Source: Alphaproteobacteria bacterium
GTDB lineage: Bacteria > Pseudomonadota > Alphaproteobacteria > RF32 > CAG-239
DNA length: 56,155 nt
Direction of reading: 5' to 3'
Assembly: GCA_017475935.1 (NCBI GenBank)
Contig: JAFVEP010000024.1
Span: 1-56,155 of the forward strand
Shown here: positions 3,890 to 56,155 of the stretch, one piece after another
How the letters are laid out: every line of letters starts with the position of its first letter
How positions within the stretch are numbered: the stretch's first letter is position 1
Notes under the pieces: model-generated
The model's input: only the letters and a program-made list of their open reading frames with translations
Databases searched by the model: none
What the model was told of the DNA's origin: nothing
Position numbers and translations under genes: made by a program

Positions 3890-4078
3890 ATGGACAACAA
3901 CACAACAACCGTCAACGGGATTACCTACTGTAATTTCTGTTGCAAAGAGTTGCAAAACGGCGAAGAATGTGATTGCGCAGCCTCACAGCGTGCCGCTGAA
4001 AAAGCCAAGAAAAAGGCCGAGCGCGCCAAGTTAAACAAACATAATGAAACACCGCCGCGCCGTAAAACCTTGTGGTAA
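3890..4078 (+). CDS. small Cys-rich protein (62 aa) with a basic C-terminal tail
   Basis: Contains CNFCC...CDC followed by AEKAKKKAERAKLNK. Has its own promoter-like site and a strong terminator. No clear SD. Confidence 0.45.
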   Translation: MDNNTTTVNGITYCNFCCKELQNGEECDCAASQRAAEKAKKKAERAKLNKHNETPPRRKTLW

Positions 4079-4080
4079 TC

Positions 4081-4118
4081 AAAAGATCCTGCTCTTTTCG
4101 GGCAGGATCTTTTGTCTT
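4081..4118 (+). terminator. rho-independent terminator
   Basis: Perfect 11-bp stem AAAGATCCTGC/GCAGGATCTTT with a 9-nt loop, then TTTTGTCTTT. Confidence 0.8.
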
Positions 4119-4169
4119 TAAGTGTGTAATCAAAACATCTTCCCTTTCGCGACGCTGCGCTATAATCCT

Positions 4170-4239
4170 ATTTACTGTCATTTCTCGAAGTGCGCTGCGC
4201 GTCACTTCGTCAAGAAATCTCATCTTTGCGTAGCACTAT
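4170..4239 (+). repeat. 70-nt hairpin unit (type B), preceded by a partial tail-only unit at about 4134-4162
   Basis: Head tttactgtcat, then hairpin TTTCT/CGAAGTG/CGC-tgc-GCG/t/CACTTCG/tca/AGAAA, then tail tctcatctttgcgtagcactata. About 97% identical to 55938-56007. Confidence 0.8.
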
Positions 4240-4266
4240 ATTTTTTTAATTCGAAAATACCCTGAT

Positions 4267-4440
4267 CTCGTGTGTCCCATACTCGGAGGCATGACTTTTT
4301 ATTAATTGATAAAAAACACTTGACTTTTGCTGCGGGGGTAATGTGAAAAAAAATATTTTTAAACAGATAAAGTCACCCCTGTTTTTCGCTTTGAAAGCGA
4401 AAAATTGAAGGGGCTCCCGAATCTTAATGCAAAAGGAGAA
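4267..4440 (+). promoter_or_regulatory. conserved promoter/leader cassette, copy 1, upstream of a pilin-like ORF
   Basis: About 90% identical to 56031-56155. Contains TTGACT (4319-4324), G5 (4333-4337), TAATGT (4338-4343), a long leader hairpin at 4375-4412 (CCCC-tg-TTTTTCGCTTT-g-AAAGCGAAAAA-ttgaa-GGGG) and the RBS AAAGGAG at 4431-4437. Confidence 0.5.
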
Positions 4441-4445
4441 GTAAC

Positions 4446-4598
4446 ATGGGAACAAAAACAAACCAATCCGGTCGCAGTATGATTGAAATGCTGGGCGTCT
4501 TGGCCATCATTGGCGTTCTGTCAGTGGGAGGCATCGCCGGCTATTCCAAAGCAAAGGCGTCATTCTTAAATTCAGATAAATTCATATCATCTTTTTAA
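4446..4598 (+). pseudogene. truncated type IV pilin-like gene (50 codons: class III signal plus N-terminal helix only)
   Basis: Encodes MGTKTNQSGRSMIEMLGVLAIIGVLSVGGIAGYSKAKASFLNSDKFISSF*. The first 36 codons match the 47438 pilin at 34/36 residues. Homology stops after GYSKA and a stop follows 13 codons later. Below the ORF-track cutoff. Confidence 0.55.
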
Positions 4599-4662
4599 CA
4601 AATATTAATATTTTTGTTTCATACTCTGACACAGAAGTAACATTTTCAAAGCAGAGGTTTTT

Positions 4663-4977
4663 ATGGAAACAACGAATAAAGATTTAGTCATCGAGCAAAA
4701 GCATGAAGGAACAAAGTTAACATGTACTCTTTCGGGGTGGTTGGATCCGAACACATCGCCGAAATTAATTGAACAAATCGATCTGGCGGAGATTAAGGAA
4801 CTTGTTTTTGACATGAAAAATGTCGAATATGTTTTTTCGGCCGGTTTACGTGCATTCATGATTTTTCAAAGAATAATGGATGCACAGAACGGAACGATCA
4901 AATTAATTAACGTATCCGATCAAGTCAGATCTATTTTTGAATACACCGGTTTTGAAAGCCTTTTAGAACCTAAATAA
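4663..4977 (+). CDS. STAS-domain anti-sigma-factor antagonist (SpoIIAA/RsbV-like)
   Basis: 104 aa. Contains VEYVFSAGLRAFMIF...IKLINVSDQVRSIFEYTGF, typical of the STAS fold with a phosphorylatable Ser. Confidence 0.8.
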   Translation: METTNKDLVIEQKHEGTKLTCTLSGWLDPNTSPKLIEQIDLAEIKELVFDMKNVEYVFSAGLRAFMIFQRIMDAQNGTIKLINVSDQVRSIFEYTGFESLLEPK

Positions 4978-4982
4978 CGAAC

Positions 4983-7319
4983 ATGCTCAAATCTTGGTTT
5001 CGCAAACACTCCCTGAATTTCAAGTTAAATATAAGCATTTTAACTTGCGTTTGCTTAGGCTTTTTTGGCCTCATAACTTTTATTTCGCAATATGCCGAAC
5101 CGATTATTCAATCTCAAAGTGAACACAACGCCAAACAGACCGTTGATTCATATATTGCCGATATAACCTTTTTGGTTTCGGACACAGAGCGAATTGTTCT
5201 TAACACCAAGAACACTCTTGACCAACTGTCCAGCACGGATATGGAATCATTATTGGTCGTTTTGAATTCAGCCATCAAGACCGGCAGCAATTCAACTCTG
5301 ACTTTCACGAATGCTTGGGTTTACATTTTCCAGCCAAACAATGTCATCAAAGGCAATTTATATATCAGCACGAAGGAAAATGGCGAAACTTATTTCAAAT
5401 CAGAAAAGGTGAGCAATTTTTATGATCGTTTTCCGTGGTTTAAGGAAGTTCCCAAAAAAGAAAAAATCTACTGGTCTGAGCCATACAAAGATAAGACTTC
5501 CGGTCAGGTTGTCGTCACCTGTTTGGTTCCGTTTAAATTTAAGGATACTGGCGATTTCAGCGGATTAGTTGCCCTAACCGTTGACTTAAGCCGTATACAA
5601 GAAAGCATCAATCATTTTTCGTATTATAAATCCGGAAAACTTTTGCTCTTATCGCGAACCGGATTATATGTCACGCATCCGAATCCAAACATCGCACTTA
5701 AAAAAACAATTTTCGATCTGGCTGATGAACTCAATCTCGATCAACTGGCCTATGTCGGCATGGAGCTTGCCAAAGGTAAATCGGGACAGATTGAAATAGA
5801 TCACTCCTCCGTTATCAGCGGACAAGCAATATTTTTCTATGCGCCGATCAAAAAACTCGGTTGGGGATTTTGTCTTGTTTATTCAAAAAAGGAATTTTTA
5901 CGGCCGATTCATCATTTCCAAATCATTGTTTTATTAGCCTTTTGCGCCGGCGCTGTTTTGCTGTTTTTCCTGATCAGCCACATCTGCCGCAAGTCAACCG
6001 ATCAACTTCTTACGCTAAGCTCCTTAGCAACCCAATATGGCAACGGCGATTTTACGGAAAATTTCAAGGATAACCCGTCTTCATCGGATATAAACGTTAT
6101 TGCCAATGCCCTAACCAGCATGAAGGAAAATTTGCTCAATTACATCGAGAAGGAAAGAAAAACAGCTTCCGATCAGCAAAGAAACGAAAGTGAACTTGAA
6201 ATTGCGCACAGCATACAGAAATCCGCCTTGTCGGAACAATATCCGCAGCACGAAGCTTTCGATATTTCAACTTTAATGATACCGGCCAAACAAATCGGCG
6301 GCGATTTTTACGATTTCTTTTTCATCAATGAAAATCGATTTGCCTTTGTTATTGCAGATGTTTCAGGAAAAGGCATTCCGGCCGCATTGTTCATGATGAA
6401 AGCGCAAACGCTGATTAAAAATGCCTGCAAAAACAACCGCGATCTGGCGAGTGCCATTCACTTAGCCAACAACGAGCTGTGCGAAGGCAACGAATCGTGC
6501 ATGTTTGTCACGGCATTCATCGCCGTTGTCGATCTGATCAGCGGTAATATGAACTTTGTCAATGCCGGACACACCATTCCGCTTTTTTATACAAATGATA
6601 AATATCGTTTCCTCAACCCGCAAAAAAATATTGTACTGGGTGCTAAAGAAAATGCTGAATTTGTGGCCGAAAAAATTTCACTTACTTCCGGAGATCGTGT
6701 GTTTATATACACAGACGGCGTGACCGAAGCCGAAAACGAAGAATCCGATTTTTATGGCGAAAAAAGATTGGAACACGTATTGCAAAAAATATCTTCTTCG
6801 CCGACTCGCAATTTGCATAACGTTCTGCAAGACATTAAAAAATTCACCAAAACCGCACCGCAATCAGACGATATTGCCATGCTTGAATTTGTTTACAACG
6901 GCTTCAAAACGGGCTCTATTGTCTTTGCCGCCGATTTAAAAAATCTGGCCGGTATGATTAACTTCTTAAAAGGTGAAATGAACAAGCACAACCTTTCGGA
7001 AGCAGCGCAATTTGCCATGATCAGCGCCGCCGAGGAAATATTCAGCAACATTGCTCTTTATGCCTACAAATCGGAGGAAAACGGCACCATCAAAATCAAA
7101 ACTTTCACCAAAGATGATAAATTTTATGCCTCATTCTCCGACAGCGGAAAACCATATAATCCGCTGGCTAAAAAAGATCCGGATATTAAGCAGGATATCA
7201 AAAAGCGCGAAGTCGGCGGTTTAGGCGTATTTTTAGCCAAAAAACTGACCGATGACATATCCTACAGCTACAAAAAGGGATTAAACATCCTAACCATCGG
7301 TATTTCTTTACATAAATAG
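4983..7319 (+). CDS. membrane sensor (Cache-like periplasmic domain and HAMP) fused to a PP2C/SpoIIE phosphatase and a C-terminal RsbW-like HATPase kinase domain
   Basis: Two TM helices flank a region of about 280 aa. PP2C motifs GGDFYDFF, FVIADVSGKG, YTDGVTEA and DDIAML. C-terminal EEIFSNIALYAY...GGLGVFLAKKLTDDISY. Confidence 0.8.
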   Translation: MLKSWFRKHSLNFKLNISILTCVCLGFFGLITFISQYAEPIIQSQSEHNAKQTVDSYIADITFLVSDTERIVLNTKNTLDQLSSTDMESLLVVLNSAIKTGSNSTLTFTNAWVYIFQPNNVIKGNLYISTKENGETYFKSEKVSNFYDRFPWFKEVPKKEKIYWSEPYKDKTSGQVVVTCLVPFKFKDTGDFSGLVALTVDLSRIQESINHFSYYKSGKLLLLSRTGLYVTHPNPNIALKKTIFDLADELNLDQLAYVGMELAKGKSGQIEIDHSSVISGQAIFFYAPIKKLGWGFCLVYSKKEFLRPIHHFQIIVLLAFCAGAVLLFFLISHICRKSTDQLLTLSSLATQYGNGDFTENFKDNPSSSDINVIANALTSMKENLLNYIEKERKTASDQQRNESELEIAHSIQKSALSEQYPQHEAFDISTLMIPAKQIGGDFYDFFFINENRFAFVIADVSGKGIPAALFMMKAQTLIKNACKNNRDLASAIHLANNELCEGNESCMFVTAFIAVVDLISGNMNFVNAGHTIPLFYTNDKYRFLNPQKNIVLGAKENAEFVAEKISLTSGDRVFIYTDGVTEAENEESDFYGEKRLEHVLQKISSSPTRNLHNVLQDIKKFTKTAPQSDDIAMLEFVYNGFKTGSIVFAADLKNLAGMINFLKGEMNKHNLSEAAQFAMISAAEEIFSNIALYAYKSEENGTIKIKTFTKDDKFYASFSDSGKPYNPLAKKDPDIKQDIKKREVGGLGVFLAKKLTDDISYSYKKGLNILTIGISLHK

Positions 7320-36400: not shown

Positions 36401-39400
36401 GGTATTTACCTTGTTCCGAAGAACACAAGCACAACGATTGATTTATATAACTCAGGTACTATGTCCGGTGGACCTAGAAGGCATGAGGCTAACATTTACA
36501 TTGCTCCGGATGGCTTTACGAAAGAATACACCTTCACCAACTTAGGCTCGGCCACATGCGGCCCATCGGGAACATGCATCGTCCAAGCCCCTGAACCGGA
36601 AGAAACCGATACCGGTACAGGTACGGGCACAGGCACAGGTACGGGTACAGGAACTGGTACGGGTACAGGTACAAGCGGCGACAATACCGGCTCATTTGAT
36701 CCGTATGATTCTAGTATCGTCGCAAGTGAAACGAATAATGAGGATATAAGAGTAGATAGCATACAAGATGACGGCACAGCATTCTCAACAAATGCAATAG
36801 TCAATGGGATTGAAATTACGGGCAAAAGTAATTCTTTTGTTTTCGAAAATAAAGGTAAGATTACTGTGCAGAGAAGTTCTAGCCACGGCATAATTGCCGA
36901 CAGCGGCACAATCATTAACCTTGGTACGATTCAATTGGATGGTAGCTATGCAGATCAATTCGATCCGAATTATGAGAGTGGAAAGGCCAATTACCGAAAA
37001 GATCTCAAAGGTATCTTAGGTCGCGAAGATGTAAAAGCGATTAAAAATTACGGAACAATTAATATTGAGGGTAATCCGCAAGGGCATAATTATGGAATCA
37101 CAGCCTCTCAACTGAACTCTCCTTTCGTCATAACCAACGGTGTCGGCGGTAGCATTGCAGGTCCTGCCCAAAGCTCTATTTATGTAACTGATACGGGTTA
37201 CCCCGTAACAGTTAATAATGACGGCACAATCAGTGGCGCCAAAGAATATGGTATTTATGTTGCAACAACTTCAGATATAAATATTAACAACAGCGGTACA
37301 TTAGAGGGAACTGTTGCTGCAATTTATGCCGCAACAAATAAGAATATAAGCCTCACCAATACCGGAACGATAACAAATGGTGTTTATCTTTATATGGGCA
37401 GTGAAGATGCCACTATTCAAATTCACAACACCGGTACGATCACAGGTAGCGCCAAAACACATAATGTTGGAATTTATATCGACCATGCATATGAAAAAGA
37501 TTATGGCATTACATCTGCAGACTTGGGAGGTGCTTCTTGTTTAACTTCCAATGGTAAATGCATCTCTGATACAGGTACTGAACAAGGCGGAGGCACCGAC
37601 ACAACCCTTGAGCCAAGTACTGGCCCATTCGTCGCTCCGGATGATCCGTCGATTGTGGCCGATCAAAGCAATTCAGCAACAGTGTCACTTAACTACGCCA
37701 AAGATAAGGGATTTACCATTCAAAATCAAGATAACAGCTATGTATTCATTAATGAAGAAACCGGTATAATCAACGTTAATAAAAACGAATCAGCTATTGC
37801 TGCAGATAGCGGTACAATCATTAACCGCGGACAAATTAACGTAGCTGCTGGTGTTGGTATAGGTATTGATGTCAGTAAAAATATTCGAGCTATTAAAAAT
37901 TATGGCACAATTCAAGCCAGAGAAGGCACTGCTATTTCAGCAGGGAATTTGACCTCAGATCTGACTGTTTCCAACGGTTTCAATGGAGTCATAGAAGGTG
38001 AAGAAAAACCAGTTTATATAAACAATACATCGAATGCTGTTTCTTTGACGGTTCTCAATGATGGTCAAATTCGCAGTAAGGGATATGCCATTTATGCCAT
38101 CAACGATAACGGCTTAATCACAATTAAGAACCATGGAACAATTATCGGTGACAGCGACAACACAGGAAACTATACAGCTGTCTATGCACGATCCGCTGTA
38201 GGCTTTAACATTACCAATAGCGGAACCATTACTAATGGTATTTATCTCTTTCCTAAAAGCGAAAATGCCACGATTAACATCAAAAATACCGGAACCATCA
38301 CCGGCAATGCAAAAACACAAAATTTTGGAATTTACATAATGAATTCGTCTATAGTCCCAGAACTCAGACCATATTACAACCTCACAAGCGCGGACTTAGG
38401 TTCAGCGACATGTTCGACCGCACAAGGTTCCGAATATTGCGGTTCCGCCCCTGTGGGAAACAACAATGTCGGCACTTCATCCTTTACGAAGAAAATGTAT
38501 ACGCTGAAAATTTTGAACACGGGAACCATCGCCAACAGCGGTGAAATGAACTTCGGCGATGATCAAGATCCGAATATTTCCGTCGGCGCCGGCGGTCAAT
38601 ATCAGGCCGATTCGTTTACCGGAACGGTAGGCGCTGATTCCAGCATTGTCGAAAGCGGATTCGATACCACCTATGTCAATGAAAATTCATTCGTCGGTAC
38701 CGATAAAGGCATTGTCGTCAAATCAAAATCCTACATGTTCAACGCCGACAAACAGGCGAACGCAAACGGCAATACCGACGTTGTCATGACCATGAAATCC
38801 ATAGACAGTGTCGTTGATGATCAGAAAATTGCCGGCTATTTGACACAAAACTATGAAAACCAAAAAGGCGAAGTCCTGTTTGCCTCTTTAAAATCGGCCG
38901 CCACAAAGAAAGCTTTCGCACAAAACTTGAACCGCGATCTCGGCTTCAACATGATACCGAACTTAATCAAGCAAAATACGGACACCGAAAAGGTCATTCA
39001 TCGCGAAATCACCGACGCACTTTTTGCCTCCGATCGTGATGGTGCGCATATCAAAATGCTGACCTATCAACGTCGCGCCGGAACAAAAAGCGGAGCTTTG
39101 GGATACAAAGACAAAGTCAGCGGCGCTTTCGGATTTTATCAGCACACCTTATCGAATGGCATCCGCACAGCGCTCGGATTCGACATTTATCGTGCCGTCA
39201 GCAGTTATAACGATGACTCTTCACGTTATCACAACGCTGCCGAAATCTTTGCTCCGATCATGCTCGGATCGCGTGAAAATGCGCTGATGTTCAAGCCGAA
39301 AGCCGGATTTACCCGCGGACATTATCGCCGCAGAAGTGCTTATGACGCCCATAAAGCGCGCACAAAGGAATACTATTACGGTGCCGATACGCAGTTCGAA

Positions 39401-47437: not shown

Positions 47438-48052
47438 ATGAAAACCAAAACAACCCAATCCGGAAGAAGTATGATCGAGATGCTCGGCGTCTTGGCCATC
47501 ATCGGCGTATTATCGGTGGGTGGCATCGCCGGCTATTCCAAAGCCATGAGCAAATACCGCATTAATAAAACGGCAGATCAGGTTGCCCAAATAATCAATG
47601 GTGTGCGTACGCTCTATAGCGGGCAAAAAAACTATGCCGGTATTAACAACACTGTTCTGCGCAAGGCCAAAATCTTACCGGAATCGGCTTTTGAAAGCTC
47701 TACATCTAATAACGCCACCAACCCATTCGGCGGTAGTTTTTCGATTAACGCAACGGGTAGAAAAATCCACGACGATCAAAAGGCTGCTACGTTGATGGTA
47801 TATGATATACCTGAAGATGCATGCATTGAACTCGCCACGCAAGATTGGGGCGCCGGCGAAGGCTTGTTTGCTGTAGCGCTCGGCTCTCCATCCCAATATT
47901 TAGATGGCTGCTCGGGTTCTTTTGATAATGGTTCATCCATTCTAGTAGGATGCGCTGGCGGATCAACTGTTTCTCTCCCGATACCGGTTGATAAAGCTAC
48001 GAATGCTTGTTCAATAGGTAGTAATCTGCGTATAAGTTTCTTCTTTTACTGA
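47438..48052 (+). CDS. type IV pilin / pseudopilin-like protein
   Basis: Class III signal MKTKTTQSG|RSMIEMLGVLAIIGVLSVGGIAGY with G at -1 and E at +5. The C-domain has paired Cys residues. TAAGGAGAA RBS. Confidence 0.8.
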   Translation: MKTKTTQSGRSMIEMLGVLAIIGVLSVGGIAGYSKAMSKYRINKTADQVAQIINGVRTLYSGQKNYAGINNTVLRKAKILPESAFESSTSNNATNPFGGSFSINATGRKIHDDQKAATLMVYDIPEDACIELATQDWGAGEGLFAVALGSPSQYLDGCSGSFDNGSSILVGCAGGSTVSLPIPVDKATNACSIGSNLRISFFFY

Positions 48053-55757: not shown

Positions 55758-55815
55758 TGACAAGCCCCTTTTCACGTTGAAAGCGAAAAATTCAAAGTCT
55801 TCCGAATCTTTTAGT
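55758..55815 (+). repeat. degenerate, gene-less remnant of the 3' part of the leader cassette
   Basis: gccccttttcacgttgaaagcgaaaaattcaaagtcttccgaatctt parallels 4374-4424 but is not followed by an RBS or pilin ORF. Confidence 0.45.
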
Positions 55816-55930: not shown

Positions 55931-55937
55931 CATCTAT

Positions 55938-56007
55938 TTTACTGTCATTTCTCGAAGTGCGCTACGCGTCACTTCGTCAAGAAATCTCATCTTTGCGCAG
56001 CACTATA
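55938..56007 (+). repeat. 70-nt hairpin unit (type B')
   Basis: Same head and tail as type A. Hairpin TTTCT/CGAAGTG/CGC-tac-GCG/t/CACTTCG/tca/AGAAA. 7-nt spacer catctat after unit A. Confidence 0.85.
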
Positions 56008-56030
56008 TCTGAATATTGAAGATGCCCCAA

Positions 56031-56155
56031 CCTCGTGTGTTCCACACTCGGAGGCATGATTTTTTATTAATTTATAAAAAAAGACTTGACTTTTGCTGCG
56101 GGGGGGTAATGTGAAAAAAAATATTTTTAAACGGGTAAAGTCACCCCTATTTTTC
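56031..56155 (+). promoter_or_regulatory. conserved promoter/leader cassette, copy 2, cut by the window end
   Basis: About 90% identical to 4267-4386. TTGACT (56086-56091), G7 (56100-56106), TAATGT (56107-56112). Ends inside the leader hairpin, so the driven gene lies beyond the window. Confidence 0.5.

Follow-up and report, generated by a model that had tools for sequence, protein, structure and literature searches.

The conserved non-coding block that runs up to a pilin-like start codon at position 4446 of the window is probably the expression module of a pilin family, consisting of a sigma-70-type promoter and a short 5'UTR placed before about 30 of the 38 pilin-like genes in the genome. 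This assignment comes from comparison of sequences; that expression is controlled by the hairpin in the leader and by the run of G residues in the promoter we can only infer. The window is the whole stretch of DNA analysed, the 56,155-nt contig C53 of a MAG from an uncultured rumen alphaproteobacterium (1.37 Mb, 80 contigs, 42% G+C). Two forms of leader occur, T1 with the hairpin (n = 24, including both window copies) and T2 without it (n = 8). The features of the two window copies and their surroundings are as follows.

4177..4240, + strand: REP-like hairpin unit 5' of the cassette; it belongs to a separate repeat family, recurs as query segment 1-66 independently of the cassette and aligns with units at 55933-56008
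4253..4305, + strand: module B, made up of an imperfect hairpin and then TTTTTATT; terminator- or insulator-shaped and present in about half of the copies
4311..4325, + strand: A-tract (4311-4316) and -35 hexamer TTGACT (4320-4325), where the conserved part of every copy begins on its 5' side
4326..4338, + strand: promoter spacer, tttgctgc plus G5 (4334-4338), 13 bp in window copy 1
4339..4344, + strand: -10 hexamer TAATGT, which is TAATAT in 2 copies and otherwise invariant
4346..4375, + strand: predicted transcription start in an A8 run, placed from the position of the -10 hexamer, then the A/U-rich single-stranded start of the 5'UTR, unpaired in folding
4376..4413, + strand: T1 leader hairpin, with an 11-bp inner stem, a 3-nt bulge and an outer CCCC(U)/(A)GGGG closure
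4414..4445, + strand: linker with CTCCC (4414-4418), then the SD AAGGAGA (4433-4439), up to the start codon
4446..4598, + strand: pilin stump of 50 codons with an N_methyl motif; the class III signal and N-terminal helix are kept, after which homology is lost
55769..55810, + strand: decayed T1 leader remnant of half a hairpin plus linker, with no gene after it; 84% identity to query positions 184-226
56018..56155, + strand: copy 2, ending with the contig; module B, -35 hexamer (56086-56091), G7 (56100-56106), TAATGT (56107-56112) and the start of the hairpin (56144-56155)

An earlier note on this DNA had matched 4267-4386 to 56031-56155 at about 90%, which pairwise alignment bears out, counting 9 mismatches plus 3 indel bases, namely an A and two G. 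It described two copies; the genome carries about 30, and chance is therefore excluded. Nor is the sequence 5' of the block unrelated, as had been stated, for homology passes 4267 and, by way of sequence that is only partly related, reaches the REP-like unit. The hairpin that it described is present, but at 4376-4413 and not one base further left (4375-4412); its 11-bp inner stem and CCCC/GGGG closure are as given, and the GGAG lies at 4435-4438 instead of 4434-4437. The ATG at 4446 was correctly placed, and copy 2 is indeed truncated by the contig end, 12 nt inside the hairpin. What had been called a long 5'-UTR is so in part: 4346-4445 is plausibly 5'UTR, whereas 4253-4305 is a terminator-like module and 4311-4344 the putative promoter.

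Copies of the cassette and the genes behind them

Sequence search of the genome located the cassette at its roughly 30 places, many of them at contig ends, and a motif scan resolved 30 promoter cores. Common to every copy in the all-copy alignment is a core of A-tract, TTGACT, a short variable stretch, the G-run, TAATGT, A8 and TATTTTT; both AAGGAG and AAGAAG occur as the SD among the copies. Module B is missing from the copies in C79, C42, C52, C34, C19, C64 and C78, its predicted fold is weak (-11.5 kcal/mol, z = -1.6), and in copies lacking it conservation starts sharply at the A-tract and -35 hexamer. The genome-wide alignment of cassette copies, a check named by the earlier note, revealed a modular build; the hairpin folds in all of the complete T1 copies.

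Twenty-two copies are assembled through into the sequence behind them: 15 of type T1 before full-length genes, 6 of type T2, and the one before the window stump. Of these, 22/22 read into a pilin-like ORF. This supports the proposal of the earlier note that the block is an expression module common to a family of paralogous surface proteins. Extrapolation from these copies suggests that a pilin ORF also follows copy 2; database look-ups using two neighbouring proteins found no record extending the contig.

The 38 pilin-like ORFs of the genome carry a G|RSMIEMLGVLAIIGVL signal (in the form G|RSMIEML), match Pfam N_methyl, PilS and Bundlin, and are type IVb-like pilin paralogs. The relatives to which the pilin protein led are uncultured rumen and gut Alphaproteobacteria MAGs. 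Promoter, UTR and signal are common to many of the 38 paralogs and the mature protein diverges, as in the expression cassettes of surface-protein families. T1 leaders precede genes of both pilin subfamilies and T2 leaders those of the long-leader-peptide subfamily only.

One pilin subfamily has prepilin leader peptides of 40-90 residues, made of reshuffled repeat modules (PECGAEAPQ, KEKILR and a third ending ...RQAYAPQYG) that look like translated repeat DNA. The window also contains, at 47438-48052, a full-length 204-aa pilin of the short-leader subfamily that has no cassette; a different hairpin and promoter-like sequence lie upstream of it.

Eroded fragments of T1 leaders were found at 55769-55810 in the window, C14:13461-13558 and C77:1188-1260, each reduced to half a hairpin, linker, or linker and SD alone. 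They show that cassettes erode once separated from an intact promoter-gene unit. The cassette also explains the contig breaks at pilin genes in this assembly. For a reduced gut/rumen symbiont, 38 genes and about 30 copies of the module in 1.37 Mb are a very large investment, which suggests that diversifying its adhesins or antigens is central to how it lives.

Window copy 1 is itself a relic, with the shortest spacer of all (13 bp) and a pilin gene reduced to its 50-codon stump; an identical stump is present in two other assemblies. Immediately behind the stump come a STAS gene and a Cache-SpoIIE-HATPase_c_2 fusion gene (window 4446-7319). A scan detected no terminator between the stump and these STAS and SpoIIE/kinase genes, and residual transcription could therefore enter them, so the relic promoter may now feed a STAS/SpoIIE partner-switching pair.

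Promoter, G-run and exchange between copies

Comparison with related species gives good support for reading the 5' half of the block as a sigma-70-type promoter and not as leader RNA. In sister species, notably the MAG RGIG4773 with its > 30 paralogs, pilin promoters stand at -240 to -270 and are near-consensus, with aaaaatagTTTGACTTTTG, a 16-17-bp spacer, an extended -10 TG and TATAGT or TATCAT. The A-tract and TTGACTTTTG context of these promoters is also found in the cassette, and TAATGT occupies the -10 position, corresponding to the TATAGT/TATCAT of the relatives. It was through this homology that the hexamers were assigned. A consensus promoter scan found none at the window copy, which it misses because the spacer there is 13 bp.

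The arrangement of TTGACT, 8-10 nt, G5-8 and TAATGT, with its homopolymer between -35 and -10, occurs in 30 copies. The spacer is 13 bp in 1 copy, 14 bp in 4, 15 bp (the mode) in 19, 16 bp in 5 and 17 bp in 1; the spacers of 13-15 bp (24/30 copies) fall below the sigma-70 optimum. Spacers of 16-17 bp are mostly those of the short-leader-peptide subfamily, and the long-leader subfamily has 15 bp. From the geometry of the promoter, transcription most likely starts in the A8 run. The expression module would thus begin with an A-tract, TTGACT, a spacer ending in G5-G8 and TAATGT, and the G-run, by setting spacer length, would set promoter strength. The prevalence of short spacers and the negative consensus scan count against the expression-module reading as a whole.

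Other uses of the same bases were rejected. Judged by eye, no GG/GC spacing fits a sigma-54 promoter, and the GC is absent from the 'gatac' variants. A uORF attenuator through the G-run would have only frames that begin at the -35 TTG and lack an SD. There is also an ATG-TGA start-stop inside the -10 hexamer which, like the G-run frames, lies upstream of the predicted transcription start.

The non-coding module is held far tighter than the neutral sites beside it. From promoter to ATG, pairs of T1 copies are on average 0.88 identical and pairs of T2 copies 0.92, whereas the fourfold-degenerate third positions of the 26 conserved helix codons directly downstream are 0.53 identical, and the earlier note was right that conservation of the leader exceeds that of neighbouring sequence (88-92% versus 53%). 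Likewise, the leader on a contig of RGIG5118 differs from the C3 copy at 3 positions in about 145 nt (about 98% identity), with pilin proteins that are 74% identical. High identity could nevertheless come partly from recent duplication or gene conversion in place of selection, and part of the likeness of the cassettes is gene conversion. The expression module would then owe its uniformity to selection on promoter and leader, plus occasional conversion between copies.

Probable exchange between copies is seen at two loci. Window 4230-4338, compared with the corresponding locus of assembly ERZ28654170 (L198:1068-1175), has identical flanks around a patch of about 100 nt with clustered substitutions across module B, and G6 replaces G5. 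L203:270-600 and C3:22060-22389 encode an identical 231-aa pilin followed by the same adhE-like gene, but have different promoter variants (G7 and 'gatat' in L203); the upstream flank of L203 is unrelated to that of C3 and similar to that of C50. The difference between C3 and L203 is either a recombinational swap of promoter or locus, or an assembly chimera at a repeat. The C3 and C48 pilins have near-identical N-termini and differ in promoter variant.

It is possible, although doubtful, that these are contingency promoters in which the G-run slips during replication, each paralog switching independently between a weak (13-15 bp) and a strong (16-17 bp) state; such switching would be the chief regulatory logic of the cassette and is compatible with the expression module. 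The G-run lies exactly between the hexamers, where relatives have a T-run, G5-G8 translate into spacers of 13-17 bp, of which 16-17 bp is reached in only 6/30 copies, and tract length differs between assemblies at the window locus (G5 here, G6 in ERZ28654170) and at the C3 pilin (G6 here, G7 in another assembly). Both differences, however, lie within patches of substitutions (a conversion patch and a recombination patch, respectively), which favours conversion over clean slippage. Moreover, the C78 (G7) and C50 (G8) loci are identical in the independent sample ERZ28654170, and the C19 and C64 loci are identical in ERZ27256838, an assembly that matches this genome exactly at the window locus. 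Tracts of G5-G8 are also near the lower limit for efficient slippage. Phase variation at the G-run is plausible but unproven.

The leader hairpin and the T2 palindrome

In the T1 hairpin of window copy 1, the inner stem is formed by TTTTTCGCTTT (4382-4392) pairing with AAAGCGAAAAA (4394-4404), and CCCC (4376-4379) and GGGG (4410-4413) close it. Folded alone it reaches -18.1 kcal/mol (z = -4.45), and 0/200 shuffles fold as well. The same hairpin, with 12-16 pairs and -8.6 to -18.1 kcal/mol, is formed by 22/22 complete T1 copies. The outer 4-bp stem is mismatched in about 9/22 of these copies and the inner stem in about 8/22. A single compensatory double change (GCG/CGC to CAC/GTG) was found, in the most divergent copy, C35:16438, and evidence for selection on the pairing of the hairpin is thin.

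The hairpin is probably a transcribed leader element with a post-transcriptional role in stability, processing or the tuning of translation. A T1 transcript of the expression module would start with about 30 unstructured A/U-rich bases, followed by the hairpin and about 20 bases to the ribosome-binding site. The hairpin would be neither terminator nor riboswitch and may act, for example, as a nuclease barrier or as a docking stem for a protein or Hfq. The uncompensated stem mismatches and the eight hairpin-free T2 paralogs weigh against this role.

Several more specific functions were sought. The T1 hairpin is followed by UCUCCCGAAU and not by a U-tract, and no terminator-like site was found in a scan of 4000-4700. 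Rfam 15 gave no match at E ≤ 1 on the loci of the window, C3 and RGIG5118 copies. Sequestration of the SD was rejected, as MFE structures leave the SD open and the sole pairing uses a codon, GGA, specific to the window. With the one compensatory change and the T2 paralogs, these results support only in part the cis-regulatory RNA that the earlier note had suggested.

Control of the CsrA type was rejected, a CsrA gene being absent from the genome; an Hfq gene is present. A uORF starting at the TTG of the hairpin loop was rejected because its frame is not conserved between copies. The hairpin resembles the stem of the C72 terminator, but as a relic of an ancestral leader terminator it was rejected: the best local alignment score, 24, equals the mean of the shuffled null (24.1).

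A serious rival to a post-transcriptional role is that the hairpin is a neutral passenger, which arose once, was copied with the gene and has been conserved by young duplication and conversion without having a function. This we regard as tentative. It agrees with the absence of the hairpin from T2 paralogs, with uncompensated stem mismatches in about half of the copies, with leader conservation that is uniform rather than focused on the stem, and with the documented conversion patches. It does not easily account for leaders that are still 88% identical when fourfold sites 50-200 nt downstream are at 53%, for a hairpin that folds in every complete copy, or for the compensatory double change; the remnants at 55769-55810 and in C14, moreover, show what unconstrained copies look like.

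The T2 leader is only about 50 nt, and a T2 transcript would be hairpin-free. Its start is the exact reverse complement of the G-run/-10 region, which gives a perfect 18-bp palindrome across the -10 hexamer and the start (-37 kcal/mol, z = -6.5). The whole is a loop-less palindrome of about 40 bp, GGGGTAATGTG, an A-run, TA, a T-run and CACATTACCCC, which extends from the -10 hexamer to the first 20 or so transcribed bases in eight pilin paralogs. Its sites are the following.

C39:10510-10551: T2 palindrome
C40:22225-22265 and 39212-39252: T2 palindromes
C50:119-159 and 1009-1048: T2 palindromes
C55:79-120: T2 palindrome
C75:9718-9760: T2 palindrome
C30:~1-37: T2 palindrome

The palindrome could be an operator, a read-through insulator or a template-switch accident. 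Were it an operator, the 18-bp palindrome of T2 and the half-site GGGGTAATGTG of T1 would both cover the -10 hexamer, and a dimeric regulator would co-control all paralogs. That seems unlikely: the palindrome is perfect in 8/8 T2 copies from -10 to about +20 and its left arm is invariant in 30/30 copies, but the 24 T1 copies have a degenerate right arm, a loop-less palindrome of 40 bp is atypical of operators, no candidate regulator was identified, and the palindrome could be a one-off product of template switching inherited by T2. A wider and rather speculative proposal is that pilins are expressed one of many, G-run length and promoter swapping among the roughly 30 loci stochastically picking a few of them; a regulator acting on the whole family would then enforce this choice by recognising the invariant GGGGTAATGTG box, the T1 hairpin or the T2 palindrome.

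That the leader is an RNA sensing a ligand or signal (riboswitch, attenuator or RNA thermometer) is very unlikely. There is a stable stem near the SD, the CUCCC 3' of the hairpin is able to pair with the GGAG of the SD, and the G-run, if transcribed, could pair with CUCCC. However, promoter homology puts the G-run upstream of the start, and the anti-SD pairing shows no covariation with the AAGGAG/AAGAAG variants. The failure to match Rfam and the lack of a U-tract or terminator-like site also speak against it, as does the form of the structure, a simple hairpin without a junction or a conserved loop for a ligand.

Least probable is an origin of the cassette as a mobile repeat (of MITE, REP or integron-like type) inserted 5' of genes: it is multi-copy, lies at many contig ends and often adjoins REP-like units, but it is always oriented toward the pilin gene, its conservation reaches the first codons, it lacks terminal inverted repeats and target duplications, and its hairpin sequence is confined to cassettes or remnants, a genome search having found the hairpin core outside cassettes only in two decayed remnants.

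Leaders in sister species and comparison with known systems

A blastn search of 49 other species of the genus and of 16 further relatives gave no match to the cassette. An exact-pattern scan of genome contigs found it on one RGIG5118 contig only, and an 18-mer scan of metagenomes gave chance matches only. On the evidence of these searches the cassette is species-specific.

Sister species have instead a leader of about 250 nt, with a three-way junction, a terminator-like stem and the SD, in that order, in its 3' half. The junction spans about 110 nt, the SD is complementary to its P1 strand, and it is seen in the L032-L110 upstream regions; compensatory changes occur in 19/28 of its predicted pairs. 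A covariance model of the sister leader (R1) found 3-44 copies per genome in 18/18 genus genomes searched. In the present genome it found 10 copies, before diverse genes, of which one only (in C72) is pilin-like. Junction sites in this genome are listed below.

C72:1360-1473: three-way junction
C57:24877-24990: three-way junction
C16:3948-4044: three-way junction
C18:305-423: three-way junction
C31:8435-8531: three-way junction
C8:15709-15811: three-way junction
C76:39-138: three-way junction
C78:41030-41149: three-way junction

The sRNA-Xcc1 model (RF02221) scored at best 27-41 bits on the sister leader in 31 genomes, none over the gathering cut-off of 53. The three-way-junction RNA looks like an undescribed genus-wide family of cis-leaders. 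Between the T1 leader 3' of the promoter and the sister leader there is no significant similarity, and the pilin family here would seem to have kept the ancestral promoter and gained a new, much shorter leader. The swap of a structured leader for a short one within one genus is a natural experiment on leader function. The module also offers a testable handle, with a defined promoter that has a tunable G-run and two leader forms differing by one hairpin.

Homopolymers occupy the promoter spacer in Bordetella pertussis fim2/fim3 (C-tract), Neisseria meningitidis porA (poly-G) and opc (poly-C), and Mycoplasma hyorhinis vlp (poly-A). As in these systems, the homopolymer of the cassette lies between the promoter elements of surface genes, the tract sets the spacer and each paralog has its own tract. 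The cassette differs from them in its short tracts (G5-G8), in the number of paralogs, about 30 against 2-7, in its host, an uncultured commensal alphaproteobacterium, and in that length switching at a locus has not been observed.

The vlp and vsp genes of Mycoplasma have conserved 5' expression cassettes in multigene families of variable surface proteins. Near-identical promoter, 5'UTR and N-terminal signal with diverging mature parts are shared with them. The products here, however, are type IV pilin-like and not lipoproteins, there are two leader forms (T1/T2), and sites for a site-specific invertase were not found. As in Neisseria pilE/pilS, the 5' end is conserved across many pilin paralogs, and copies show signs of having recombined with one another; unlike the silent pilS cassettes, nearly all copies have their own promoter, SD and ATG.

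The leader of E. coli ompA is a 5'UTR with a stabilising stem-loop, and the T1 leader resembles it in having a stable stem-loop on the mRNA of an abundant surface protein. The T1 hairpin lies about 30 nt from the predicted 5' end and not at the end, as in ompA, and its stabilising role would be by analogy. Overall, the cassette is an example of a type already known, the conserved expression cassette of multigene surface-protein families, with a homopolymer placed in the spacer of its promoter. What stands out is how many copies this small genome carries, and that the leader has been replaced within the genus.
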